64,000 nucleotides of DNA from IMG/VR virus record IMGVR_UViG_3300009684_000029. The stretch is one strand, 5' to 3'. Both the position numbers and the translations under genes were made by a program. This DNA comes from an uncultured virus (IMG/VR IMGVR_UViG_3300009684_000029). Lineage: Duplodnaviria > Heunggongvirae > Uroviricota > Caudoviricetes. Numbering within the stretch: the stretch's first letter is position 1; every line of letters starts with the position of its first letter. Below the pieces are notes generated by a model. The model ran no database searches, had not been told where the DNA came from, and saw only the letters and a program-made list of their open reading frames with translations. Of the stretch, positions 4,296 through 60,524 are shown one piece after another.

Positions 4296-4469
4296 ATGAA
4301 AACAATACAAAACAGAAACACTTTTGAAGTGAGGAGAGTATCAGACGTAGTAGCTGAGAAGATGATTTTACAAAATTGGAAATATGTTCCTAAAGCAACT
4401 GCTAAGACAATTAAAGAACCTGAATTAAAATTCGTAACTAAAACTAAAAAGCATGATAAAGTTTCATAA
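4296..4469 (+). CDS. Small hypothetical protein (57 aa, not in ORF track)
   Basis: MKTIQNRNTFEVRRVSDVVAEKMILQNWKYVPK... fills the gap between two genes. Confidence 0.6.
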   Translation: MKTIQNRNTFEVRRVSDVVAEKMILQNWKYVPKATAKTIKEPELKFVTKTKKHDKVS

Positions 4470-4776
4470 ATACGCCTTGACATCTTTCGATTTAGAAAAG
4501 ATGGAGGATTTAAAATTTGATGGCGAACATCCTAACGGATATAATCCAGGATATAAGATTAAAGGAGCTACTATTAATTTAGAGTCATCTATAAAATATC
4601 AAGCATTATTTGTTCATGATGGACCAGATAGATGGTTTCATACATCGACAGTTGAAAGACAAGAAGAATGTGAAGGATATGATTTATTATATACCCTTAA
4701 TTCAGTTTATAAAGTAACTCCAAACATTCCTGGAATATCAGGAGTTCAAGAAAAACATATAGTAACGATAGATTAA
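4453..4776 (+). CDS. Hypothetical protein
   Basis: 107 aa ORF in operon; WFHTSTV...TLNSVY motif. Confidence 0.7.
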   Translation: MIKFHKYALTSFDLEKMEDLKFDGEHPNGYNPGYKIKGATINLESSIKYQALFVHDGPDRWFHTSTVERQEECEGYDLLYTLNSVYKVTPNIPGISGVQEKHIVTID

Positions 4777-4781
4777 AGAAT

Positions 4782-4838
4782 ATGAAAAATACATTATTAA
4801 TATCAAGCGATTTCTATTCAGTACAAGGGACGTTGTAA
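4782..4838 (+). pseudogene. Displaced original N-terminus of queE (stub MKNTLLISSDFYSVQG-TL*)
   Basis: Translation matches the queE N-terminus MLISSDFMSVQG, then diverges after GTACAAGG. Confidence 0.85.
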
Positions 4839-5613
4839 AAAGTAAAACTGTCTATATTTATATTAAAAGAATATGGAATATAAAAAAGACATGAAATGGC
4901 GTAAATTAAAATTTACTGCAGAAGAAAAAAAGCAATATTATAATAGTATTATTAAACCTTTAATTTGGGAAGGGTTGACATCAAAAAAAATGCAAGATGA
5001 TAAATTAATATTATGCTCACATCCTACAGCTCGAGTCCTTTTAAAAGAGTTTGGTACTGAAGATGATATTATTAAGTATACAAATAACACGAAGTCTGGT
5101 AAAGCGCATGGTAAAACTAAAGGTCGTGCTAATAAATATAAAGGAATGAAATATGAGGAATGGATGTCACCTGAAAAAGTAATATCTAAAAAGGCTCAAG
5201 CTTCAAAACTTTGGAAGGAAAATAATCCCAGAAAATTCTTTACTGGAAATAATGTTAGTAAAGGACAGCGTTTATTATATGAGACTATAAAAGAAAAATT
5301 TCCTACAGCAGTATTAGAATATGAAATAGCAGCGCCCGGCAAAAAATATTATTTAGATATTGCAGTTCCTGACCTTATGCTAAATTTTGAATATGATGGT
5401 ATATATTGGCATTCATTTCCCGAAGCTATTGAACGAGATAAAAATCGTGATATATACTTAAAATCGTTAGGATGGAAAGTTTTTAGGTATTCATTTAATG
5501 CTAGAAATGATTTGGAAGTTAGAGAAGAATTAATTAAATTAAATATAAATTTTAAAGAATATGAATAAAATAAATAAGATGCTGATTTCATCAGACTTTA
5601 TGAGCGTACAAGG
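4829..5613 (+). mobile_element. Endonuclease element inserted in the 5' end of queE, carrying a replacement N-terminus
   Basis: Bounded by GTACAAGG at 4821-4828 and 5606-5613; contains promoter/hairpin, endonuclease ORF and recoded queE start. Confidence 0.8.
4873..5568 (+). CDS. Putative homing endonuclease, Vsr/DUF559-like
   Basis: YYLDIAVPDLMLNFEYDGIYWH...RDKNRD..L...GWKVFR; basic N-terminal half. Confidence 0.85.
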   Translation: MEYKKDMKWRKLKFTAEEKKQYYNSIIKPLIWEGLTSKKMQDDKLILCSHPTARVLLKEFGTEDDIIKYTNNTKSGKAHGKTKGRANKYKGMKYEEWMSPEKVISKKAQASKLWKENNPRKFFTGNNVSKGQRLLYETIKEKFPTAVLEYEIAAPGKKYYLDIAVPDLMLNFEYDGIYWHSFPEAIERDKNRDIYLKSLGWKVFRYSFNARNDLEVREELIKLNINFKEYE

Positions 5614-6448
5614 AGAAGGTATATCAACTGGTATTCCATCATACTTTGTACGATTAGCAAATTGCAATTTAACTTGCGGAATGTCGAGAGCATTCGCAAA
5701 TAAAATTCTAAAAGAAAAATTACTAGATGATGGTGAAATATTTAAAGGTGATTTAGAATTAGAAGGTAAAGCTACTTGGACCTGTGATTCTACATCACAA
5801 TGGTTATGGAGAGGAGTTGAGCAAGACTTTCAATATCTAATTAATCAGTGGAAACAACAAGGAATATATGATGATATATTAAGTGGTACCATTCATGTTA
5901 TTTGGACAGGTGGTGAACCTACAATTAAGTCACATCAAGAAGCTATTGTTAATTTTCACCACTATCTATATGATGTTGTGTATTATGAAACATTAGAAAA
6001 TCTAAAAGGAACAGCAGTTGCCGATGAAGATGTCTATAACTACATTAAATTAAATTTATTTAATGAAATAGAAACTAACGGCACAATAGTAATTGAAGAT
6101 GCTTTATTCCAAATGCTAAACCAAATAAATTGCTCACCTAAATTAGCAAACTCAGGAATGACTGAGAAACAACGTATTAATCCAGAAGCAATTAAACGAA
6201 TAATGTCACATAATAATTATCAATTTAAATTTGTAATAAGTAATGAAGAAGATATCCAAGAAATATTCAGCGATTTTATCATACCATTTAGCATACCTTT
6301 TAAGAATGTAGTTGTAATGCCAGGAATGGATTCGCAAACTCAGTTTCATGAAAGAACCAATTTCATTATGGAAATGGCCAAGAAATATAAAGTAAGAGCA
6401 TTATCTAGAATGCACATAAGTGCGTGGGACAAAACATTAAATGTATAA
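5561..6448 (+). CDS. queE: 7-carboxy-7-deazaguanine synthase (radical SAM)
   Basis: SVQGEG..G.PS.FVRL..CNLTC...WTCDS, WTGGEP, IETNGT, NCSPKL, FKFV, RMH motifs. Confidence 0.93.
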   Translation: MNKINKMLISSDFMSVQGEGISTGIPSYFVRLANCNLTCGMSRAFANKILKEKLLDDGEIFKGDLELEGKATWTCDSTSQWLWRGVEQDFQYLINQWKQQGIYDDILSGTIHVIWTGGEPTIKSHQEAIVNFHHYLYDVVYYETLENLKGTAVADEDVYNYIKLNLFNEIETNGTIVIEDALFQMLNQINCSPKLANSGMTEKQRINPEAIKRIMSHNNYQFKFVISNEEDIQEIFSDFIIPFSIPFKNVVVMPGMDSQTQFHERTNFIMEMAKKYKVRALSRMHISAWDKTLNV

Positions 6449-6451
6449 GTT

Positions 6452-7066
6452 ATGAATAAAAAAGGAAATGAAGGACCAACCTTCGAAGAAATAGCCGTTG
6501 TAGAAAAAGCAACTAACGGAAAAATTGGGAAATATGAATGGTGGGATGTTAGAGGTACAGACGAAGCATTTAAATCAAATATTAAACCAAAGAATGAATC
6601 AGATATAATTTTTCATGGTGTATTAGAAAACTCATTTATATCACCTAATGGAAAATATATTGGTGATTTTGATAGAGCTAAATGGTATCAAAAAAATAAA
6701 CTAAAAGTATATGAACCGTACGCTTCTGGAGTTGCTGAAGCATATAATGAAAATGATGAATTAGAAGGATATTGCGGTTACACTCATAGAGGAGCTCAAA
6801 TATTTCGAATCGGAGATAGATTATTTGATGAATCTTATGAACCAAAAGAAGAAGATTACACATCAGAACAGTGGTCAGAATGGGTTAAAAAATATAATGA
6901 CGATATTGCTGAGGCTGAGTTAGAAGGAGATACTTGGTGGGTAGATGATATTAAAAGTGATGGTATTGGTAGATATATACCATTTAAATTAAAAGGATCT
7001 AAACTTATTGAATCGATGGAAGAATGTGCTCAAGCAGCAATCAACTTAAGTAAACATTTAAGTTAA
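6452..7066 (+). CDS. Hypothetical protein
   Basis: 204 aa ORF; GYTHRGAQIFRIGD. Confidence 0.7.
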   Translation: MNKKGNEGPTFEEIAVVEKATNGKIGKYEWWDVRGTDEAFKSNIKPKNESDIIFHGVLENSFISPNGKYIGDFDRAKWYQKNKLKVYEPYASGVAEAYNENDELEGYCGYTHRGAQIFRIGDRLFDESYEPKEEDYTSEQWSEWVKKYNDDIAEAELEGDTWWVDDIKSDGIGRYIPFKLKGSKLIESMEECAQAAINLSKHLS

Positions 7067-20320: not shown

Positions 20321-20485
20321 ATGGGAAGATTAAGAAAATATAATACCGAAAAAGAAAGTAAAGAGGCTCAAAGACAATTTGCTCGCAATTACTATTGGAA
20401 GAATAAAGAACGTCTTGATAGAGAAGCTAAAGAAAGATATCAAAATAAAATCAATCCGAATAATGAATTACGAAAAGATTTATAA
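20321..20485 (+). CDS. Small basic protein preceding the HNH endonuclease (54 aa, not in ORF track)
   Basis: MGRLRKYNTEKESKEAQRQFARNYYWKNKE...; lies behind TATTTATA and a hairpin; overlaps the HNH start. Confidence 0.65.
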   Translation: MGRLRKYNTEKESKEAQRQFARNYYWKNKERLDREAKERYQNKINPNNELRKDL

Positions 20486-21245
20486 TGATATCGTAGCTAA
20501 GGCTAGGGCTGAAGATAGAAGGAAAATAAAGGGCGGAATATATTATGAAGCACATCATATCATACCAAAATGCTTAGGCGGAGACGGAAAGACATCTCAA
20601 CATAAACATCCTAATATTATATTACTTACTGCTAAAGAACATTATATTTGTCATCGATTATTATGTGAAATATATCCAAATAATAATAAATTAGTATATG
20701 CTTTTTGGAGGATGATTAATAGTTCAGGCGGTAATAACGATAGATATATTTTGTCTGGAAATGAATTTAAAAAAATAAAAGAGGAAATAAAGATAAAACT
20801 TGCAGGAAGAATAATTTCATCAGATACTAAAAAAAAGATGTCTATTTCTAGTAAAAATAGACCTCCAATGTCTGAGGAAACTAGAAAAAAATTATCAGAT
20901 AACTCTAAAGGTAAAAATAATCCAGGATCTAAACCTGAAGTAATTGCTAAACGCGTAGCTACTATGACCAAAAAAAGTTTAAATGGTATTTATGGCGTAT
21001 CAGGAAACCGTCATGCAAATTATAAAGGAGTTTTAGAACAAAAGATATTAAAATATAAAGGTGGCATTGCATCTGGTAATGCCACCCAAGTTGAAATTGA
21101 TGGTGTTAATTATGATTCTTATAAAGCAGCAAGTAGAGTATTTGGAATAGCAGGAGAAACCATATCTAGAAGATGTAAATCAGATAAATATCCTGCATGG
21201 AAAATTATAAAAGAATATAAAAAAGATGATAAAGAAAGAACATGA
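20463..21245 (+). CDS. HNH homing endonuclease with NUMOD3-like repeats
   Basis: YYEAHHIIPKCLGG...NIILLTAKEHYICHRLL; S.ETRKKLS repeats; start taken as ATG 20463 rather than TTG 20379. Confidence 0.9.
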   Translation: MNYEKIYNDIVAKARAEDRRKIKGGIYYEAHHIIPKCLGGDGKTSQHKHPNIILLTAKEHYICHRLLCEIYPNNNKLVYAFWRMINSSGGNNDRYILSGNEFKKIKEEIKIKLAGRIISSDTKKKMSISSKNRPPMSEETRKKLSDNSKGKNNPGSKPEVIAKRVATMTKKSLNGIYGVSGNRHANYKGVLEQKILKYKGGIASGNATQVEIDGVNYDSYKAASRVFGIAGETISRRCKSDKYPAWKIIKEYKKDDKERT

Positions 21246-22155
21246 TATTTGGACAGAGGCCTATAGGCCGCAAATACTCGAAGACTACGTCGGTAATGAC
21301 CACATAAAAGAGAAGATTCGGGTATTTCTTCAAAACGAAGATATGCCTCATCTTCTTTTAAGTGGACCTCCAGGTACAGGTAAAACGAGTTGCGCTAAAT
21401 TAATTACAAATACTTTTGATTTTGAAATGCTTTATATAAATGCATCTGATGAAAACTCAGTTGATGTTATTAGAGATAAAATAAAATCATTTGTAAGTAC
21501 GATTAGTTTTAATAAGTTTAAAGTAGTTATATTAGACGAGGCAGATTATGTTACTATTCAAGCTCAAGCAGCATTGCGTAACTTAATGGAGACATTTAGT
21601 AGCCATGCTAGATTTATTTTAACCTGTAATTACCTAGACAGAATTATTCCTGCTATTCAAAGTAGATGTCAATCCTTTCAAATCATTCCTCCTAATAAAA
21701 AGGAAGTGGCAGAAAGGGTAGTAAAGATATTGAACAATGAAAATATTACTTTTGATATTAAAGATGTTGCAAACTTTGTTAATGAAGGATATCCAGATAT
21801 CAGAAAGGTAATTAACTTATGTCAACAGCATTCAGTAAACGGAGAACTAACACCTGATAAATCTATTTCATCTAGAAAAGCATATACTTTACAATGTATT
21901 GATATATTAAAGAATGAAACCAGTCCAAAAGAATGCTTTACTAAAATAAGACAATTAATCGCAGATTCTAAGATAAGAGACTTTGCTGATTTATTTAGAA
22001 TATTATATGATGAGATAGATGTTTATGGAACGGGTCATATTGGCCCTGTTATTATGATAATAGCAGAATATCAGTATAAAGACACTTTCTCAGTTAATAA
22101 AGATATCAACGCTGCGGCGATGTTCGCAGCTCTTATAGGAACTATTAAAAAATAA
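21226..22155 (+). CDS. Clamp loader large subunit (gp44/RFC-like AAA+)
   Basis: W.E.YRP, GPPGTGKT, INASDE, LDEAD, SRC. Confidence 0.95.
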   Translation: MIKKEHDIWTEAYRPQILEDYVGNDHIKEKIRVFLQNEDMPHLLLSGPPGTGKTSCAKLITNTFDFEMLYINASDENSVDVIRDKIKSFVSTISFNKFKVVILDEADYVTIQAQAALRNLMETFSSHARFILTCNYLDRIIPAIQSRCQSFQIIPPNKKEVAERVVKILNNENITFDIKDVANFVNEGYPDIRKVINLCQQHSVNGELTPDKSISSRKAYTLQCIDILKNETSPKECFTKIRQLIADSKIRDFADLFRILYDEIDVYGTGHIGPVIMIIAEYQYKDTFSVNKDINAAAMFAALIGTIKK

Positions 22156-32399: not shown

Positions 32400-32651
32400 A
32401 TGAATGAATCACAATTTATACAATGGCTTAAGGGCTATTTAGATGGAAGAAAAGTATCTGCAGGAGAAAACACCTTATCTTTTGAGTTAGCTACGATCAA
32501 ACATAATTTAAGTATGGTATATACAGATCCTAACCCTAAATATAATATTGAGTCTAGAGATACAAACGGGTATAAAATCTATGTTGATGGTATTGATGGC
32601 CGAACAACAAACTCATCTAATACAGTAAATAAAACAATACTAAAAGGGTAA
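32400..32651 (+). CDS. Hypothetical protein
   Basis: QFIQWLKGYLD. Confidence 0.65.
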   Translation: MNESQFIQWLKGYLDGRKVSAGENTLSFELATIKHNLSMVYTDPNPKYNIESRDTNGYKIYVDGIDGRTTNSSNTVNKTILKG

Positions 32652-33205
32652 TGATAAAACTTAAAAGCTTACTTAAAGAAGCTAAACCAGAAACCCATGA
32701 ATATGGATGTGTAATGTTATATTTTACCTTTCCAGAAATAAATACTATTCATCATCTTATTGATCAAAACGATATCTATACTGATGATAATGATCCTTCT
32801 TATGGATTAGAAGATGAACCTCATATAACATTATTATATGGATTACATCCTGAAGTAACGGTAGATCAAGTAAAGCACGTATTAGATGGACATGTTTATT
32901 CTACTTGTAATATATTTAATGCTTCCGTATTTAATAACGAAAAATATGATGTTTTAAAGTTTGATGTAAGGGGTGAAGGATTAAATGATACTAATACAGC
33001 ATTAAAGGCATATCCTTATACAAGTAATTTTCCTGATTATCATCCTCATCTTACAATTGGATATCTTAAAAAAGGAACGGCTCAAAAATATGCTGATAAG
33101 ATTAATAACATAATGCCCAAAGGATATCAGTTAGTTCCTAAGTATGCAGTATATTCTGAATCAGAAGGAACGAAAAATCAATTACCAATACATACAAATC
33201 AATAA
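32651..33205 (+). CDS. 2H phosphoesterase (T4 57B/Acb1-like) with MIKL leader
   Basis: Two HxT motifs: PHITLLYG and YHPHLTIGY. Confidence 0.8.
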   Translation: MIKLKSLLKEAKPETHEYGCVMLYFTFPEINTIHHLIDQNDIYTDDNDPSYGLEDEPHITLLYGLHPEVTVDQVKHVLDGHVYSTCNIFNASVFNNEKYDVLKFDVRGEGLNDTNTALKAYPYTSNFPDYHPHLTIGYLKKGTAQKYADKINNIMPKGYQLVPKYAVYSESEGTKNQLPIHTNQ

Positions 33206-53306: not shown

Positions 53307-53753
53307 ATGAATAATAATACCCTTAAAAAACTTATCAAAGAAGAAATAAGATCTATACTTAAAGAAGGAGAACATGATCAACAAAACTATATGTTCTTTC
53401 AAAATCTTCATACTATTAAAAGAATGGTAGAAAAAATGCTTGCTCTTAATCCACAAGAAGTAGACACATTATTATCTAACGGTCATGCATGGGCTGTAGA
53501 TCATATTTCAACTTCTGCAGATGATGTAGGTGAAGTAGGAACTTGGCTTTGTAATGAGTTAGGACGTGATATGAATAACACTAATATGATGACTGAATCT
53601 AATTCAAGAAATGATATTGCTAATTATATTATTATATTATCAAATAGACTTATTGTAGCTAAACAAGAAGGCGATCAAAAGATGATTGATACATTAACTA
53701 AATGGATTGCAGATTTAAAGAATGAACTTAAAGGCCTTAAAGAAACTAACTAA
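53307..53753 (+). CDS. Hypothetical protein with LIKEE leader
   Basis: TLKKLIKEEIRSILKE; TAATTATA at 53285. Confidence 0.75.
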   Translation: MNNNTLKKLIKEEIRSILKEGEHDQQNYMFFQNLHTIKRMVEKMLALNPQEVDTLLSNGHAWAVDHISTSADDVGEVGTWLCNELGRDMNNTNMMTESNSRNDIANYIIILSNRLIVAKQEGDQKMIDTLTKWIADLKNELKGLKETN

Positions 53754-54199
53754 TGACAAAACACGATAAACTAAGACAATTACTTAAAGAGCAAATCAGA
53801 AAAGTAATTCTTAAAGAAGGATTTCAATCAGCAGACAATATTTATATGTCAATGTTTGAAGATAATATTGTTCTTACACAATCATTTAATGGGTCAGAAT
53901 CAGATATGGGCCAAAAGATAGAAATATCTATGAAAGACTTTCCTAAGATATTAGATGGTTTATTTAATTTGGTTCCTGTAAATAGAATACCAGTTAACTA
54001 TCGTCAAAGTATGATAGCAAAGTTATCTGATAAAGCAATTGATCAAGAAACTGATTTAGATGCTGAAAAACCAGATAAAGAATTTAAGGGCGGTAAAGGT
54101 AAAGAAGAAGAGGGCGGTGAAGAAGAAGCTGCACCAGAAGAAGAAGCACCAGCAGGTGAAGAAGAAGCTCCGGCTAAAGGTAAAAACCCATTCGCATAA
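53753..54199 (+). CDS. Hypothetical protein with LLKE leader and acidic tail
   Basis: KLRQLLKEQIRKVILKE; EEEAAP/EEEAP repeats. Confidence 0.7.
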   Translation: MTKHDKLRQLLKEQIRKVILKEGFQSADNIYMSMFEDNIVLTQSFNGSESDMGQKIEISMKDFPKILDGLFNLVPVNRIPVNYRQSMIAKLSDKAIDQETDLDAEKPDKEFKGGKGKEEEGGEEEAAPEEEAPAGEEEAPAKGKNPFA

Positions 54200-54603
54200 T
54201 GAGAAATGATAAGTTTAGATTACTTCTTAAAGAAGAAATACGCAAGATATTAAAAGAAGATGATATTGTTCCAGTAGGACCTGAAGGAGAAAAGATATCA
54301 GATTCAAAGGTTGCAGCAAAACTTTCTAATACTCTTAAACAATCTTTACTAAAAGTACCATCATCTATGAGATCTAGACTTACTGATTTAATTGCTGATG
54401 ATGGTATACGAAGTGCGTTAAAGAGTAAAGATCAAAGGGCAAGTATATTAACTGCTATTGCGACAGCATTTGGTGTTAATGATCAAGAATTTGGTCAAGT
54501 CGTATCTCAAATCAAAAAGAATTTGGCGATGACTAATACAGAAGCACCTCAAGGTACAGAACAAGGAACTGAAGGCGGAACTGACCCTAATGATATAGCA
54601 TAA
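54199..54603 (+). CDS. Hypothetical protein with LLKEE leader
   Basis: KFRLLLKEEIRKILKE. Confidence 0.7.
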   Translation: MRNDKFRLLLKEEIRKILKEDDIVPVGPEGEKISDSKVAAKLSNTLKQSLLKVPSSMRSRLTDLIADDGIRSALKSKDQRASILTAIATAFGVNDQEFGQVVSQIKKNLAMTNTEAPQGTEQGTEGGTDPNDIA

Positions 54604-55160
54604 TGATAAAATTAAGACCTATAGTTAATAATATACTTAAAGAAGATGACGGCGAAACCGTTACCTGGGGTAATGTTAGAAGATTTTTGGAGTCAATTCG
54701 AAAAGAATCAAAAACTAAAAACTGGGGCAAGATTATAGGATTTGCTAAAGACGTACTTGGCACTAGTATAGTACCTGATTCAATTAATGCTATACTTAAA
54801 ATTATAGGAGGGAGTACCGGTCAAGAAGGAGGTGCTGAAGAAAGCGCTATTGATTTAGCAAAATCTTTAATGGCATTAAGTAAAATGGTATCTCAAGCTC
54901 AATTAGAAAATCCATTAAATTCCCAAGCATCTAAATTTAAAGGCGAGCTATGGGATAAATTAAAATTAAGTTCTAAAGTATCAGCAGTACTAGATAATAA
55001 TATAGAAAAGGAATTTATTAATTCTGTATTAGAACCTATGATAAGCAATCCAGGTAATGATAATGAACCTATACCAAATATAGATGAATTATTAGGTAAA
55101 TGGCTTAATGATACTAAAGGATTAGCAACAGATGCAGATATTCAATTCAAAGGAAGATAA
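54603..55160 (+). CDS. Hypothetical protein with MIKL leader
   Basis: MIKLRPIVNNILKE. Confidence 0.7.
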   Translation: MIKLRPIVNNILKEDDGETVTWGNVRRFLESIRKESKTKNWGKIIGFAKDVLGTSIVPDSINAILKIIGGSTGQEGGAEESAIDLAKSLMALSKMVSQAQLENPLNSQASKFKGELWDKLKLSSKVSAVLDNNIEKEFINSVLEPMISNPGNDNEPIPNIDELLGKWLNDTKGLATDADIQFKGR

Positions 55161-55181
55161 GGAGATTTATAATATATACAT

Positions 55182-55754
55182 ATGGAACCATTAACTCATA
55201 ATAACAATACCTTTAATGATTTAACTTATCAGCTATATAAACATATGTCTGATAAATATGAAGTTCTTAAGAATCAATATCCAAAATTCATTATCAATAC
55301 CAAACAACAATCATCTCATATCTTAGGACCAACAGCTAACTATCAACCAGAGACTAAAACTATTACGGTATTTAGTTTTGGAAGACATCCTAAAGATATG
55401 TTAAGATCATTTGCCCATGAAGTTATTCATCACGTTCAAAATTGTGAAGGAAGATTAACTAATACTTCTACCCATGAAGGATATGCATTAGACGACTCAA
55501 ATATGAGCGAGCTTGAACGAGAAGCATACGAGCAAGGGAATATGTGCTTTCGTGAGTTTGAGGATCTATACAAGCGCCAAAACCCCATTACCGAAGATGG
55601 TGGTGCGACAATGAATGCTGCAGAAATGAAGCGTCACAAAAATAAATTGGGCAAGCTTAATAAAGTATTAGCGAAACAGGGAGATCAAATGATTCCTTAT
55701 CCTAAAGAATTACCCAATACCGTTATGAATGCTAAATTAATTACTAAAAAATAA
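55182..55754 (+). CDS. HExxH metallopeptidase-like protein
   Basis: GRHPKD.LRSFAHEVIHH.Q...EREAY..GN. Confidence 0.7.
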   Translation: MEPLTHNNNTFNDLTYQLYKHMSDKYEVLKNQYPKFIINTKQQSSHILGPTANYQPETKTITVFSFGRHPKDMLRSFAHEVIHHVQNCEGRLTNTSTHEGYALDDSNMSELEREAYEQGNMCFREFEDLYKRQNPITEDGGATMNAAEMKRHKNKLGKLNKVLAKQGDQMIPYPKELPNTVMNAKLITKK

Positions 55755-55773
55755 CAATATAAAATATAACAAT

Positions 55774-56025
55774 ATGAAAATATCACAATTAAAGTCTCTT
55801 ATAAAAGAGAACATTAAAGAAGTTTTATCTGAGGGAGCACTTTTAAATTCTATTACTCCAGGTTTGGAAGGCGAAGTTAAAATAGCTGTTCAAAGTTTAG
55901 AAGCTTACTTAAATAAAACCAACGCAATCTTAGATTATAATCACGCACGTAAACTAGCAGAGCTTGTTATTGATATAATTGACGCTGCAAAGGATGAAGC
56001 AAGAAATGAATACAGCGATTACTAA
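55774..56025 (+). CDS. Hypothetical protein with LIKE leader
   Basis: MKISQLKSLIKENIKEVLSE. Confidence 0.7.
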   Translation: MKISQLKSLIKENIKEVLSEGALLNSITPGLEGEVKIAVQSLEAYLNKTNAILDYNHARKLAELVIDIIDAAKDEARNEYSDY

Positions 56026-56190
56026 AAAATAAGAGTATGGGTAATCAAGAAGAATATCCAGATTTTTTTGAGCATAACGAATTATAACAAATGACCAAAA
56101 AAGAAAAGAAGTCTAAGAACAGAAAGAAAATAGCTAAAGCTACTATTAAACTTCAACAACAAAAAGGCATCTATAAAAAGAAAACATAAT

Positions 56191-57360
56191 ATGATTAAGC
56201 TCAAAGATTTATTAGAGAATGTTAATATTGATTCGAAATTTAATTCTGATCTAATAAACTATATCAATAAAGAATATCGTGAAGATTATACAACATTAAC
56301 TCCTAGGGAAATTAATGATGGTTATTGTGATTTATGGGCTAGTTTATTTGTAAAGAAATTTGGCGGAGAGCATCAATGGTCTTATGACTTTCCTAATGAA
56401 CCTAATGCGCATTCATGGGTCAAGCTTAATAATAAATTTTATGATGCTGAAGCACCTAACGGAGTTTCTAGTTTAATTGAATTACCAGAATTCCAAAGAT
56501 TTATATCAAAATATGGAAATGAATGGTTAAATGATTCATTTTATAAAAATATACAATCGAGCACAACAGAAATAACAGAAGATCTTCGTGATTGGTTTGG
56601 TAAAGGTGGTAAAGGCGGAGTCGGTGGAGGAGGATGGGATAGATATAATTCATCAGGAGATAGAATAGGTAAGTGCGGAGATGCTAAAGAAGGAGATGCT
56701 TATTCAGCTTGTCTTTCAAAAGAAAAAGCAGAAAAATTAGGTAAAGAAGGAAGAGCAGCATTCGTAAAAAGAAAAAGGGCTGCCCAAAAGAAAGGCGGAG
56801 ACGCTAAGAAGGGCGGAGAAAAAACTAAAGGGCAAAAGGCTATTAAAGTAAAAACGGGCGTTAAAGAAGAAATAACACCGGAGCAGTCCGAAAAAATAGG
56901 TATGCCATATAAAGGAAAGAATAACCAAAAGTTAAAAGAGAACTTTAAAGATGGCAAAAATCCTGAACGTAAAGGATTATCTAAAAAATTTGGTATTAGC
57001 CAAACAATGACTATAGATCAATTAAAAAATATAGCAAAATCTTCTACCGGAAAAAAACAAAAAATGGCTCAATGGAATCTTAATATGAAAAGAGGTAGAA
57101 TGAAAAAAGAAAATTTAGATCCTAATACATATACAGATAAAAACAGTTCAGTTCCTTATGGGTCGGGATATGAGAGAATAAATGAATTAGAGAGGCAATT
57201 AACTTTATTCCTAGAGAAAAATATACCTACTAATCCATCAAAATGGTCTTATTATAAATCACAAGCCAAAAAGAAATTCGATGTATACCCTTCAGCGTAT
57301 GCAAATGGATGGGCTGCAAAAATGTATAAAAAAGCTGGTGGAGGTTGGCGTAAATCTTAA
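56191..57360 (+). CDS. Multi-module protein with MIKL leader
   Basis: MIKLKDLLE; Cys-His-Asp module, G/K-rich module, two basic modules ending YPSAYANGWAAKMYK..GGGW. Confidence 0.75.
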   Translation: MIKLKDLLENVNIDSKFNSDLINYINKEYREDYTTLTPREINDGYCDLWASLFVKKFGGEHQWSYDFPNEPNAHSWVKLNNKFYDAEAPNGVSSLIELPEFQRFISKYGNEWLNDSFYKNIQSSTTEITEDLRDWFGKGGKGGVGGGGWDRYNSSGDRIGKCGDAKEGDAYSACLSKEKAEKLGKEGRAAFVKRKRAAQKKGGDAKKGGEKTKGQKAIKVKTGVKEEITPEQSEKIGMPYKGKNNQKLKENFKDGKNPERKGLSKKFGISQTMTIDQLKNIAKSSTGKKQKMAQWNLNMKRGRMKKENLDPNTYTDKNSSVPYGSGYERINELERQLTLFLEKNIPTNPSKWSYYKSQAKKKFDVYPSAYANGWAAKMYKKAGGGWRKS

Positions 57361-57365
57361 TAACT

Positions 57366-57716
57366 ATGATAAAACTTAAAGACATAATCACGGAAGAAAA
57401 AAAAGAAGTATCTAAAGATGCTTTTGAAGAATTTGCTGAAACTAGAATGGGCGGAGCAGAAAAAATAACTAATGATATGCATAAAAAAGGCGGATTAGCT
57501 TTATTAACATGGCATCATTATAAAGTAAAGCTTCCTTATTATAAAAAGGCATCAGAAGGTAAACTAGATGTTGAAAAAATGCAAACCGAATATAAAGAAT
57601 ATTTAGAGAAACTTTATAAATCAACTAAAGGCGATATGAATATTACTCAAATACAATTTCAAGAGTTAGTTGGAAAACTTGAAGTATTGGGTGAATTAAT
57701 AATCAAACACAAATGA
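57366..57716 (+). CDS. Hypothetical protein with MIKL leader
   Basis: MIKLKDIITE. Confidence 0.7.
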   Translation: MIKLKDIITEEKKEVSKDAFEEFAETRMGGAEKITNDMHKKGGLALLTWHHYKVKLPYYKKASEGKLDVEKMQTEYKEYLEKLYKSTKGDMNITQIQFQELVGKLEVLGELIIKHK

Positions 57717-58468
57717 TCAAACTAACAGACATAGTAAACAAGATTATGCTAGCGGAAGAAATGGTTCAATCTGACGCATGGAAATCTATACAAAAAACTC
57801 TTGATATTCTTAGTAAAAAAGATAAAGTATTACTTTTAACCTGCTCAAATAGACATAATTGGGATGACAATAATATAGATATTCCAAAATCTACAATGAT
57901 AGCGATGTATCTTCAAGAAAAATTAGGAGATAAAGCAGTTCTAATAGATATACCAGAATTAAAAATATTTCCTTGCGAAGGTAATGTTTCTAGAAAAGAA
58001 GGAAATTCTTGTGGAATATTAAAATCAAAGCTTAAAGATAAAACTAAAAACCCGACCGGAAACCATAGATGTTGGGCTAGTCTTAATAATAAAAGTGATG
58101 AATTATGGAAAGTATCTAAAGAGCTATTTGAGTCTGACGCTGTTATATTTTTTAGTTCGATCAGATGGGGTCAAACAAATATGTTTTATCAAAATTTAAT
58201 TGAAAGATTAAATTGGTTGGAGAATAGACATACGACATTAGGCGAATCTAATATCATTAAAAATATTGAAACGGGATATATTTGCGTTGGCCAAAATTGG
58301 AATGGTGAAGTAGTTAGCGAAACACAGAAAAAGGTACATGAGTTTTACGGGTTTAAACCAAATAATGATTTGTATTGGAATTGGCAATATACAAAAAATG
58401 TAAATGATGAAACCCAGAAATCTTACGAAAAAGCATATCCTAAATTTATAAAAGATACTAAAATATAA
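57713..58468 (+). CDS. Flavodoxin-like/NADPH-dependent FMN reductase-family protein with MIKL leader
   Basis: LLTCSNR...PKS, FPCEGNVS...C...CW, SDAVIFF..IRWG...LIERL. Confidence 0.7.
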   Translation: MIKLTDIVNKIMLAEEMVQSDAWKSIQKTLDILSKKDKVLLLTCSNRHNWDDNNIDIPKSTMIAMYLQEKLGDKAVLIDIPELKIFPCEGNVSRKEGNSCGILKSKLKDKTKNPTGNHRCWASLNNKSDELWKVSKELFESDAVIFFSSIRWGQTNMFYQNLIERLNWLENRHTTLGESNIIKNIETGYICVGQNWNGEVVSETQKKVHEFYGFKPNNDLYWNWQYTKNVNDETQKSYEKAYPKFIKDTKI

Positions 58469-58475
58469 TTTACTA

Positions 58476-59180
58476 ATGATAAAGCTTAAACCATTACTAG
58501 AAAAAATACAAGAGTTTAATCCTTCCAATATAAATGCTGAATTTAATAAGTTAGCTGATATATGTGAAGGATTAGGTAACCATGAATTTCTTTCAAGAGA
58601 ATTTGGCGTCGAAGCTGGGTTTGGATTATATCTTGTATATACAGAAGAATGGACTAAAGGAAAGATTGGATTAAATTTAAGTTACGAACCAGAAATAAAA
58701 GCATACTTTACTCAATTAACCGATAAATTCGGAATGGATCATATAGTATATACTTCTTATAAAAGTTCAAGAGGCGGCTTCTTTGGCCGTGAATATTTAA
58801 TGATACCAATATCTCCATTCAAAACAATTTGGAGTCCTGATGTGCGCGATATTTATTCTGATATAAGTCAAGCAATAAAAAAGAATGAGCCCGTTCAACC
58901 TATGATAGATTCATATGTGGATGATTGGCCAACACAACCTACAGGAGAAGTATTGGTAGACTGTGACCAATATTATTTATTGAATTTTAAGCGCTTTGCA
59001 GATTTATATGGGTGGATGACGTCATCGAGAATACAAGCAAATAAACAATTTCATGCACCAAGACCAGGAAAGAAAGCTGATCTACTTGCAGTTACTACTT
59101 ATAGTGAATTAGCGCCATTTTTAAATTGGTATGCAGAAGAATCAAAATTTGATGCCCCAGTAAGCGACAGACCTAGATAA
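58476..59180 (+). CDS. Hypothetical protein with MIKL leader
   Basis: MIKLKPLLE; FFG..Y...P......WSP.V.D...GEVLV. Confidence 0.7.
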   Translation: MIKLKPLLEKIQEFNPSNINAEFNKLADICEGLGNHEFLSREFGVEAGFGLYLVYTEEWTKGKIGLNLSYEPEIKAYFTQLTDKFGMDHIVYTSYKSSRGGFFGREYLMIPISPFKTIWSPDVRDIYSDISQAIKKNEPVQPMIDSYVDDWPTQPTGEVLVDCDQYYLLNFKRFADLYGWMTSSRIQANKQFHAPRPGKKADLLAVTTYSELAPFLNWYAEESKFDAPVSDRPR

Positions 59181-59181
59181 T

Positions 59182-60012
59182 ATGATAAAACTTAAAACAC
59201 TATTAAAAGAATTAGGAGAAGGCGTTGCTCCTTATCAATGGTCAGGTCCTCAAGAAAGTAGAAATGGAGACGTTACTTATTTTTTTACTACAGAAGATAA
59301 TGATGATTATCAAGTAATATTTTCGCAGTCAAATGAAAGCCTAGAAAAACTTGATTGGTCAGTAGACTTCTTTGCAAAAGATAATAATAGATGGTCAGCT
59401 GAGATAGATACTAATCGAGGAAGACAATACAAAATTATATCTACAGTAATGGATATTATATCATCATTTATAAAAAAATACCCAGCATATACAATTCATA
59501 TTATTGGTTCTGATTATGACGGTCAAAGAAATAAGTTATATACTTTATACGCTGAAAAGAATATTTCTAAACTTCAAGGATGGAAATATAAAATAGAAGG
59601 CGGGGGAGGTATATTATTATACAAAAGGAAGCCGTCAGCAAAATCTTTATTAAAGACAGGCGAGCCAATAATTAATGGAAATCTTGATTTAGAAGGATCT
59701 AATATAACAAAACTACCAGATAATATTACAACTGTCAACGGAAATCTTATCTTACGAAATTCTTCAATAATGTTTCTTCCTGATAATTTAACTGTCAATG
59801 GATATCTCGATTTATCAGATACTCCTATAACAAAATTACCAAATAATTTAACAGTAAAAAGTGATCTTATTATAAATAACACAAAAATAGAAGAATTACC
59901 GTCTAACTTAAAACCAGGAAAATACTTCCAACTAGGATATACTCCGCTTTCTAAAAAATATACTAAGGAACAATTTGAAAAAATATTTCCTACCACTATA
60001 TTTTTTTTCTAA
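59182..60012 (+). CDS. MIKL-leader protein with C-terminal leucine-rich ~20-aa repeats
   Basis: GNLDL....ITKLPDN.TV repeated about 4 times; N-terminal half paralogous to 60027. Confidence 0.75.
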   Translation: MIKLKTLLKELGEGVAPYQWSGPQESRNGDVTYFFTTEDNDDYQVIFSQSNESLEKLDWSVDFFAKDNNRWSAEIDTNRGRQYKIISTVMDIISSFIKKYPAYTIHIIGSDYDGQRNKLYTLYAEKNISKLQGWKYKIEGGGGILLYKRKPSAKSLLKTGEPIINGNLDLEGSNITKLPDNITTVNGNLILRNSSIMFLPDNLTVNGYLDLSDTPITKLPNNLTVKSDLIINNTKIEELPSNLKPGKYFQLGYTPLSKKYTKEQFEKIFPTTIFFF

Positions 60013-60026
60013 AATATAATTTATAA

Positions 60027-60524
60027 ATGATAAAACTTAAAACACTATTAAAAGAAGTAGGAGAAGGTGTACCACCTTATCAATGGAGCGGGCCTCAAGA
60101 ACAATCTGGAAATATTAATTATCATTTTACTACAGAAGACAATGATTCATATCGTGTCGTATTTACTGGCATTGAAGGGAATGATTGGAGATTAGATTTT
60201 TATGTTAAAGAATCTAAACCCAATAGTGAATATGATTCGGGTACCGTAACCAATAAAGGCAGACAATTTAAAATCATATCTACAATAATGGATATCATGA
60301 AAGATTTTATAGAAGAATATCCTGCAGATACTATTGTATTTTCAGGCGCTGACAAAGAAGGATCTAAAACAAATCAAAGGGAAGAGTTATATAAAAAATA
60401 TATCATAAAGAATATTCATTTATTGCCAGGCTGGGATACAAATATAGATATGCCAGGGCAAATAGGACACCTTTCTATATTTAGGGAAGAACCTTTAGAT
60501 GATATGCAATTATCAATAAAATAA
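60027..60524 (+). CDS. MIKL-leader protein, paralog of the 59182 N-domain
   Basis: First 30 nt identical to 59182; shared GEGV.PYQWSGPQE, FTTEDND.Y, TN.GRQ.KIIST.MDI. Confidence 0.75.
   Translation: MIKLKTLLKEVGEGVPPYQWSGPQEQSGNINYHFTTEDNDSYRVVFTGIEGNDWRLDFYVKESKPNSEYDSGTVTNKGRQFKIISTIMDIMKDFIEEYPADTIVFSGADKEGSKTNQREELYKKYIIKNIHLLPGWDTNIDMPGQIGHLSIFREEPLDDMQLSIK

Follow-up and report, generated by a model that had tools for sequence, protein, structure and literature searches.

Introduction

Homing elements that replace the 3' end of the gene they enter are already known. The WHO elements of Torulaspora and Lachancea yeasts home into FBA1 and exchange its 3' end for a resistant copy; the displaced FBA1 fragment was proposed by the authors as a second homology region, and 3 of 7 core bases distinguish resistant from sensitive alleles (Coughlan et al. 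2020, PMC7282813). In fungal mitochondria, gene hybrids arise through mobile endonuclease reading frames (mORFs), in atp6, atp9, cox2, and nad3 of Glomus and in atp6 of Allomyces (PMC3630166). Here we analyse a stretch of 64,000 nucleotides (nt) from an uncultured lake virus of the Caudoviricetes (IMG/VR record IMGVR_UViG_3300009684_000029), called the window hereafter, in which the 5' end of queE, a 7-carboxy-7-deazaguanine synthase-like gene, is very probably occupied by a mobile homing-endonuclease cassette without an intron or an intein.

Similar to the WHO loci, the queE locus holds a homing endonuclease gene (HEG) beside a full-length target, one gene end is replaced, the displaced end is left as a fragment, and splicing is unneeded. 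The WHO elements replace the 3' end whereas the queE element replaces the 5' end, which obliges it to bring along a start codon and a ribosome-binding site as well. The WHO protein is intein-like with a zinc finger and the queE nuclease has a predicted Vsr-like fold; WHO elements sit in a eukaryotic nuclear genome, where they form clusters, whereas the queE element is found in a phage as a single copy. Since the only Pfam families met by the nuclease are DUF559 and MTES_1575, and since its predicted fold is Vsr-like, the element is not a member of the WHO family and would merely work like one. With the mORFs the locus shares an endonuclease open reading frame (ORF) inside a coding gene, a foreign duplicate of a gene end, and a native end that is left alongside and differs from relatives just synonymously. 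The mORFs, unlike the queE element, duplicate the C-terminus, carry LAGLIDADG or GIY-YIG nucleases that are often fused in frame, and live in organelles.

For the nuclease itself the closest relatives are the Vsr-like HEGs, first described in phage-like metagenomic "fractured genes" and recA introns (PMC2677866, PMC3239194). These HEGs show hairpins upstream, 3' overlap with the start of the downstream gene, and stand-alone inserts within coding regions (Dassa et al. 2009, PMC2677866). I-Bth0305I cuts right beside its insertion site, and three consecutive base changes block it while single ones have little effect (PMC3239194). The fold, the conserved acidic and His residues, the phage or metagenomic setting, the upstream hairpin, and the 3' overlap are all likenesses between these loci and the queE element. 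The I-Bth0305I and fractured-gene cases involve a group I intron, a split intein, or a gene in two complementary pieces, and no duplication and replacement of a gene start is described for them (PMC2677866, PMC3239194).

The queE element also shares with T4 SegF and Aeh1 mobE a free-standing HEG and a T4-like replication-gene setting. SegF is reportedly a free-standing phage HEG capable of intronless homing, and mobE is said to be a free-standing HEG that splits nrdA. Both spread by double-strand-break repair with co-converted flanking markers and with resistance from target polymorphism, and a parallel is proposed here for the queE element. HEGs of this type lie between intact genes or in a gene split into two working halves, whereas the queE insert restores a single complete gene by duplication.

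We found no phage description of a start-replacing design in the full-text literature outside subscription journals. An earlier note on this DNA, made from the sequence alone, had named fungal mitochondrial inserts that duplicate a 3' end as analogues and knew of no phage element class with this 5' design. The latter stands for phages and must be limited by the mirror-image 3'-end precedents (PMC7282813, PMC3630166); what is new is the 5' end, the phage setting, and the Vsr-like nuclease.

Results

Organization of the queE Locus

The locus consists of a dead queE start (the stub), a nuclease gene, and a complete queE. Its features are the following.

4453..4776, + strand: upstream neighbour gene, an ORF of 107 amino acids (aa) with no family; left flank of the occupied allele
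4773..4789, + strand: original queE translation-start region, repeat copy 1, 94% identical to 5552-5568
4782..4838, + strand: stub, i.e. the original queE start of 16 codons, then 2 foreign codons and a stop (ORF)
4815..4817, + strand: Tyr codon (TAT) in the old copy, within the presumed target; Tyr is the commonest residue in empty alleles
4821..4828, + strand: GTACAAGG, the final old-gene bases before the insert, at the insertion junction; copy 1 of a direct repeat
4829..4872, + strand: left end of the element, a non-coding spacer of 44 nt conserved among three occupied alleles
4873..5568, + strand: free-standing Vsr-like (EDxHD-type) homing endonuclease gene of 231 aa (Pfam, PHROGs, and predicted-fold match)
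5552..5613, + strand: replacement queE start, comprising the start region and the first 18 codons, repeat copy 2 (direct repeats)
5561..6448, + strand: complete queE, a 7-carboxy-7-deazaguanine synthase-like radical S-adenosylmethionine gene (PHROG 2076, 8e-37)
5600..5602, + strand: Met codon (ATG) in place of Tyr, a candidate resistance change (3/3 occupied alleles)

The stub ORF (4782-4838) reads MKNTLLISSDFYSVQGTL before its stop, that is MKNTLLISSDFYSVQG followed by TL and the stop codon, and the nuclease ORF begins 34 nt past its end. The complete queE reads MNKINKMLISSDFMSVQGEG at its start, and its ATG lies inside the final codons of the endonuclease gene. Two repeats frame the insert: the start region TTAAAGAATATGAA is present at 4773-4789 and at 5552-5568, and GTACAAGG has its second copy at 5606-5613. 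The stub, spacer, endonuclease, and overlapping queE thus agree with every sequence statement of the earlier note, and deletion between the 8-nt repeats at 4821-4828 and 5606-5613 leaves the gene intact, as that note had proposed. A classical intergenic free-standing HEG of the T4 Seg/Mob type was rejected as a description of the locus, because the insertion point is 47 nt into what used to be coding sequence and 16 codons from the target's start are present twice.

Within the spacer (4829-4872), hypervariable junction bases are followed by a conserved block (4834-4847) that gives the stub its stop codon and by TATTTATA at 4855-4862. The hairpin noticed earlier (4852-4876) pairs with the nuclease start codon. 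This stem recurs in 3/3 occupied alleles; the fold scores are weak and are discussed below. Scanning for promoters and terminators was uninformative (13 promoter-like sites against 9.0 +/- 2.7 expected, zero terminators).

The match between stub and queE exceeds chance. For 87 genes of the window, 30 residues from either end were compared with 1.5 kb of adjoining DNA, which gave 173 comparisons. With a score of 55 the stub match lies above both the median (26) and the 95th percentile (37) and ranked third; the two scores above it are full-length tandem paralogs, not stubs. No further case of a stub with a nuclease and a duplicate was found in the window by this screen. The top scores come from 53307-60524, where neighbouring tandem paralogs share a similar N-terminal motif (e.g. 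MIKLKTLLKE...).

Occupied and Empty Alleles

Two further occupied alleles were found, and the order of stub, nuclease, and complete queE is the same in all three. L036 is a viral contig of 115 kb whose nuclease is 80% identical to that of the window, with an unrelated 102-aa gene upstream; its stub is MSKINSNKLLISSDFYSI and its new queE start MSKINSNKLLISSDFMSIQGEG. L042 is a metagenome contig with a nuclease 82% identical to the window's and queD directly upstream; its stub is MSKINTDKLLISSDFYSV, and its new queE start is of the same M-type as in L036. The 107-aa gene upstream in the window differs from the upstream genes of both. All three nucleases are 231 aa long, and the 3' end of each overlaps the queE ATG. 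Each stub keeps the old sequence through the CA of the Gln codon, then a few variable bases follow, then the conserved leader. The 45 nt before the nuclease ATG are identical at 39-40 of 45 positions among the window, L036, and L042, while third-codon positions of the nuclease reach just 63-69%.

To the element there corresponds an empty form of the gene. Besides the window's own contig we collected 33 queE loci, 31 of them with a readable 5' end, and the nuclease is absent from the DNA analysed at all 31 (two of these have just 15 and 29 nt of upstream sequence, which is unlike the nuclease 3' end). In L002 queE follows directly after two upstream genes that are 96% and 99% identical to those of the window, the 99% one being the 107-aa neighbour. 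No nuclease match was found in the nearest record, G001, which is a 23.6-kb fragment and hence uninformative.

Public contigs were mapped on 4300-6300 at a likeness threshold of 88%, and parts left uncovered in X7 or X8 were not counted as evidence. The freshwater metagenome X7 holds a contig of 1098 nt (record 8, depth 226) that covers 4300-4767 and 4770-4825, with 1 differing letter in the 56 of the stub (4770-4825). In two short X7 contigs (61 nt at depth 202.7 and 90 nt at depth 35.7, summed depth ~238) position 4820 is joined to 5606. The span over which this joint is ambiguous coincides exactly with the 8 repeated bases GTACAAGG, and in these contigs the window's own stub is the gene start of a live queE. 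This is the empty allele predicted by the earlier note, in which the gene body follows straight on from the stub. The occupied junctions are present in X6 and X8 without differences. Occupied and empty alleles are therefore both present in closely related genomes (L002; X7 versus X6 and X8), in agreement with the earlier proposal of a splice-free element at the queE 5' end that carries a replacement N-terminus. Taken together, the related phage sequences that have the insert and those that lack it point to a unit that moves.

In the occupied allele the upstream gene is missing ~36 nt (12 codons) from its 3' end (window 4765-4772), and these are present in both empty forms (2940-2985 in L002; 38 extra letters in record 8 of X7). 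The gap may have been left by repair during insertion, or it may be a polymorphism unrelated to it. The contigs L003, L004, and L011 end inside the 5' end of queE or a few bases upstream of it, as expected if coexisting occupied and empty alleles confuse assembly.

The Tyrosine-to-Methionine Change in the Carried Copy

Two codons before the junction the carried copy has Met in 3/3 occupied alleles, and the same site in the 31 empty alleles is Tyr in 25, Phe in 4, Leu in 1, and Met in 1 (Fisher p = 7e-4 for Met against occupied status, relatedness ignored). The change from TAY to ATG requires three adjacent base changes. The earlier note had described the whole new N-terminus as recoded. Since empty alleles differ equally at synonymous sites, most codon differences between the two copies are ordinary synonymous variation, and recoding as selected synonymous change was rejected as a general claim; Tyr to Met is the sole change consistently tied to the nuclease. 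L036 is still locally suggestive, its old and new copies being identical over the first 32 nt and differing at 13 of the next 24.

The sole empty allele with Met is L002. Its start is 2/30 nt off the window's new copy and its upstream bases match those that precede the window stub, so it looks like a converted or HEG-lost resistant allele. Either the insert was lost between the repeated start regions, or a cut was repaired from the donor's new copy without the nuclease gene. With a complete target copy downstream of the nuclease, the arrangement can be stable only if that copy is resistant, and Met may be what confers this resistance.

Stub Divergence and the queE Mosaic

The three stubs differ at 10-13 of 30 nt in the stretch encoding LLISSDFYS(V/I), being 57-67% identical to one another, and at 0-1 residues. 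Random substitution at an equal number keeps the peptide this well in at most 5e-6 of 200,000 trials. Over its 5' end the empty allele L004 is 87% identical to the window stub (manual count). Near-synonymous divergence of this kind means that each stub derives from a queE of its own host lineage that was functional until recently, and such host-specific stubs point to repeated entry or to continuing exchange with empty alleles.

The downstream gene is a mosaic. Compared with L004 at the DNA level, the window queE is ~75% identical over the first two-thirds and 92-98% over the last third, which would fit replacement of the 5' part of an L004-like gene by a donor (co-conversion), the actual donor being outside the dataset. 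The middle of queE (5920-6040, codons ~121-160) is hypervariable, with a longer, unrelated segment compared with L002 and other relatives (identity 40-50%).

The Endonuclease and Its Family

The 231-aa protein matches DUF559 of Pfam with 23.3 bits (cut-off 20.6) and MTES_1575 with 29.4 bits, below the cut-off of 38.2; PHROGs places it in homing-endonuclease families, and phmmer against the Protein Data Bank (PDB) matches it to 3r3p (E = 0.044). An AlphaFold model was built from 25 relatives (predicted local distance difference test, pLDDT, 78.6). The top Foldseek match of this model in the PDB is 3r3p_B, the catalytic domain of I-Bth0305I (E = 1.5e-3, target template-modelling score 0.66), and ranks 4-5 are the Vsr entries 1cw0 and 1vsr (E. 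coli Vsr). Residues D162, E173, D175, H180, and D193 are invariant in the 25/25 aligned relatives. When aligned to 3r3p with HMMER, E173 falls on Glu, and D175 and H180 fall on Asn and Ala of the crystallised chain. With its predicted fold and conserved acidic and His residues, the protein fits an EDxHD/Vsr-like homing endonuclease. Residues 1-125, where members of this group would have a modular NUMOD-like DNA-binding region, have no Pfam family, and the model predicts a confident helical domain at 20-70 (pLDDT 88-96). Among the window, L036, and L042 the ratio of nonsynonymous to synonymous divergence (dN/dS) is 0.06-0.11 at a dS of ~1, so the protein is maintained by strong purifying selection.

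We inspected 24 loci with nuclease relatives (L035, L036, and L042-L063, out of 49 returned plus L042). The 7 closest relatives among these stand directly upstream of QueE-like genes (PHROG 2076), namely those of the window's own contig, L036, L042, L043, L044, L045, and L047, and the remaining 17 have different neighbours. Identity to the window's nuclease is 61% for L043, 39-40% for L044 and L045, and 40% for L047. In L044 and L045 the nuclease has ...LASDFYSI as its end; this is a fragment of a queE start, and it breaks off at the same codon. In these two loci the fragment (…MLASDFYSI; L044:3090-3145) stands after the nuclease as an in-frame C-terminal fusion and a complete queE with its own start follows, so that the order is reversed relative to the window. 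Their queE has GPGFLT where the consensus is K-I/V-F-Y-T, a variant seen in 9 of 79 readable loci (2 occupied, 7 empty).

A stub search at the protein level upstream of L043 gave no match; a decayed remnant resembling an MSKI-type start can be seen by eye and was not counted as evidence. Neither was the weak match FFTIEG (score 24) at L047. In L058 a nuclease relative lies upstream of a topoisomerase/gyrase-B-like gene, and just before the nuclease (1734-1770) 11 residues weakly match the N-terminal region of the topoisomerase-like protein (score 34); this may be another stub or chance, and it was likewise left uncounted. The viral contig L011 (910-3308; also L092) has a Tyr-type queE (30-863), then a 312-aa ORF with a DUF723 zinc finger (HEG-like), then a 209-aa ORF, a C-terminal fragment of an L043-type queE (~2520-2765), and a paralog of the 209-aa ORF. 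This order resembles the outcome of a replacement at the 3' end of queE.

Discussion

The cassette consists of a short, putatively regulatory leader, the Vsr-like (EDxHD-type) endonuclease gene, and a complete replacement queE start, that is a ribosome-binding region, an ATG, and ~18 codons joined to the final codons of the endonuclease gene. We infer from sequence data only, as the earlier note did, that the SVQGEG-coding site is cleaved and that the new end is resistant. The nuclease would cut nuclease-free queE alleles at or beside the Tyr-Ser-Val/Ile-Gln-Gly codons, a position deduced from the junctions only. To the right of the cut, repair from the donor queE body would copy the new start and part of the gene; to the left, joining within the short queE 5' sequence would strand the recipient's own start as a dead stub. 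The carried copy, with Met for Tyr (three adjacent bases) by the junction, would be resistant to the nuclease. The stub could then act as left homology for later moves, which would make the element independent of the upstream gene.

Several points weigh against this model. With stubs that are 57-67% identical, classical pairing of a donor stub with a distant recipient would be poor; short-homology joining may take its place, and the left join may use just the well-conserved last 9-14 bases, in which case the variable junction bases could be marks of imprecise joins rather than of decay. The junction bases differ among the three occupied alleles, which fits neutral decay as well as independent imprecise joins. 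The counts of Met and Tyr include related sequences, and as the new copies of L036 and L042 are nearly the same, there are maybe two independent occupied lineages only. In the L043-type queE the site residues are the same in the occupied locus and in 5 empty relatives, so that no resistance change is visible, and the queE of the occupied L047 keeps Phe-Tyr, its sole difference being Cys before Glu-Gly. The X7 joint depends on contigs of 61 nt and 90 nt, in which the shorter arm spans 25 letters at the 88% threshold, and joints of this kind can stem from other organisms; in its favour, the depth of the 61-nt contig (202.7) is near that of the flanking contig (226). The fold of the spacer hairpin is not significant (z = -1.5 for the window; -0.3 and -1.3 for its two occupied relatives). 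Finally, the cover of the nuclease gene in the RNA-library run X9 may be DNA carry-over.

That the insert is an intervening sequence (an intein or a degenerate group I/II intron, with the stub as true first exon) and is spliced out of the protein or the RNA has next to no probability. Removal of the DNA between the 8-bp repeats does restore an intact reading frame. Nevertheless, Rfam gave no family in 4300-6600 at E <= 10, just three chance-level eukaryotic small nucleolar RNA/microRNA rows, and Pfam gave no intein family, as the earlier note had held. The non-coding DNA between the old-gene bases and the nuclease start is 44 nt only, the stub closes in a stop codon, and the nuclease has its own start and stop; an intron- or intein-borne nuclease was rejected on these grounds. 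The downstream queE is complete with its own start, which L002 uses without an insert, and the joined form occurs in DNA contigs. The X9 contigs inside the nuclease gene (5125-5544) have zero joints, which is weak evidence because contigs can neither prove transcription nor exclude rare spliced forms. A fixed relic, in which one ancient faulty insertion with an inert or domesticated nuclease was passed on by vertical descent and then by ordinary phage recombination, is improbable as well. The dS of ~1 among the three nucleases makes the element old, and the junction bases have diverged. This age, taken with stub differences that are almost purely synonymous, means that a single ancient insertion with neutral decay cannot explain the stubs: 10-13 differences in 30 nt with 0-1 residue changes are impossible for old neutral relics, and the window stub is 1 letter in 56 off a live empty allele. 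The upstream genes differ in all three contexts, and the low dN/dS shows a protein that is maintained.

A more serious rival, which we consider possible but doubtful, is ordinary homing of a free-standing HEG through homology in the upstream gene and queE, with the stub as debris and Tyr to Met as a hitch-hiking polymorphism. Close relatives offer the long upstream homology that this needs (L002 and the window are 99% identical there), the stubs are too divergent for efficient pairing, and the L043-type locus lacks a site change. Yet the upstream context is different for each occupied allele and each stub is kept to the same codon, the full target copy downstream of the nuclease must resist for stability, and Met is the sole consistent difference. 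The mobile cassette at the queE 5' end remains by far our preferred description. Only tentatively, and with odds that we would not put higher than those of ordinary homing, can it be extended to a general phage class of start-replacement homing cassettes whose dead stub still has work to do. This stub may then be portable left homology into any target allele, whatever lies upstream, and it may also be a leader ORF on the start signals of the host gene that ends ~30 nt before the nuclease start and opens the hairpin by which this start is masked. The nuclease may police gene conversion between the stub and the new copy, so that just a few cut-site codons stay different, and the motif F-Y-S/T-V/I-Q/E-G-E-G, otherwise fixed in phage QueE, may bear the scars of an arms race with this nuclease family in its scattered Met, Phe, Leu, His, and Cys variants.

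Besides introns and inteins, replacement of a gene end gives a HEG a third route into important coding sequence without harm to the host, and the queE locus brings this route to bacteriophages, at the 5' end. The locus offers a natural series of presumably sensitive empty, occupied, and resistant-looking empty alleles together with a one-codon candidate for resistance, which makes the mechanism directly testable. For annotation, short unannotated stubs or "duplicated N-termini" by nuclease genes show where phage genomes have mobile boundaries and co-conversion tracts. As queE is part of the pathway for 7-deazaguanine DNA modification, exchange at this locus may carry modification genes from phage to phage.

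Other Features of the Window

The window is a T4-like phage region with queD, a GTP cyclohydrolase I gene, a family-B polymerase, and a clamp loader. Immediately downstream of queE, a gene at 6452-7066 (+ strand) matches the Pfam family Tad6, a type I Thoeris inhibitor (4e-12, 46.8 bits). A second free-standing HEG (20379-21245, + strand) has an I-TevI DNA-binding domain and NUMOD3 (PHROG 655 at 2e-38) and shares 20 nt with the start of the clamp-loader gene (21226-22155); the duplicate-end screen of the window found no stub of the clamp-loader gene near it. From 28800 to 50400 runs a ~20-kb series of sugar-modification genes (glycosyltransferases, DegT-type aminotransferases, and dehydratases/epimerases), which further includes a C-methyltransferase, a thiamine pyrophosphate enzyme, and a ketopantoate hydroxymethyltransferase. 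An Acb1/2H-phosphoesterase-like gene is located at 32651-33205.

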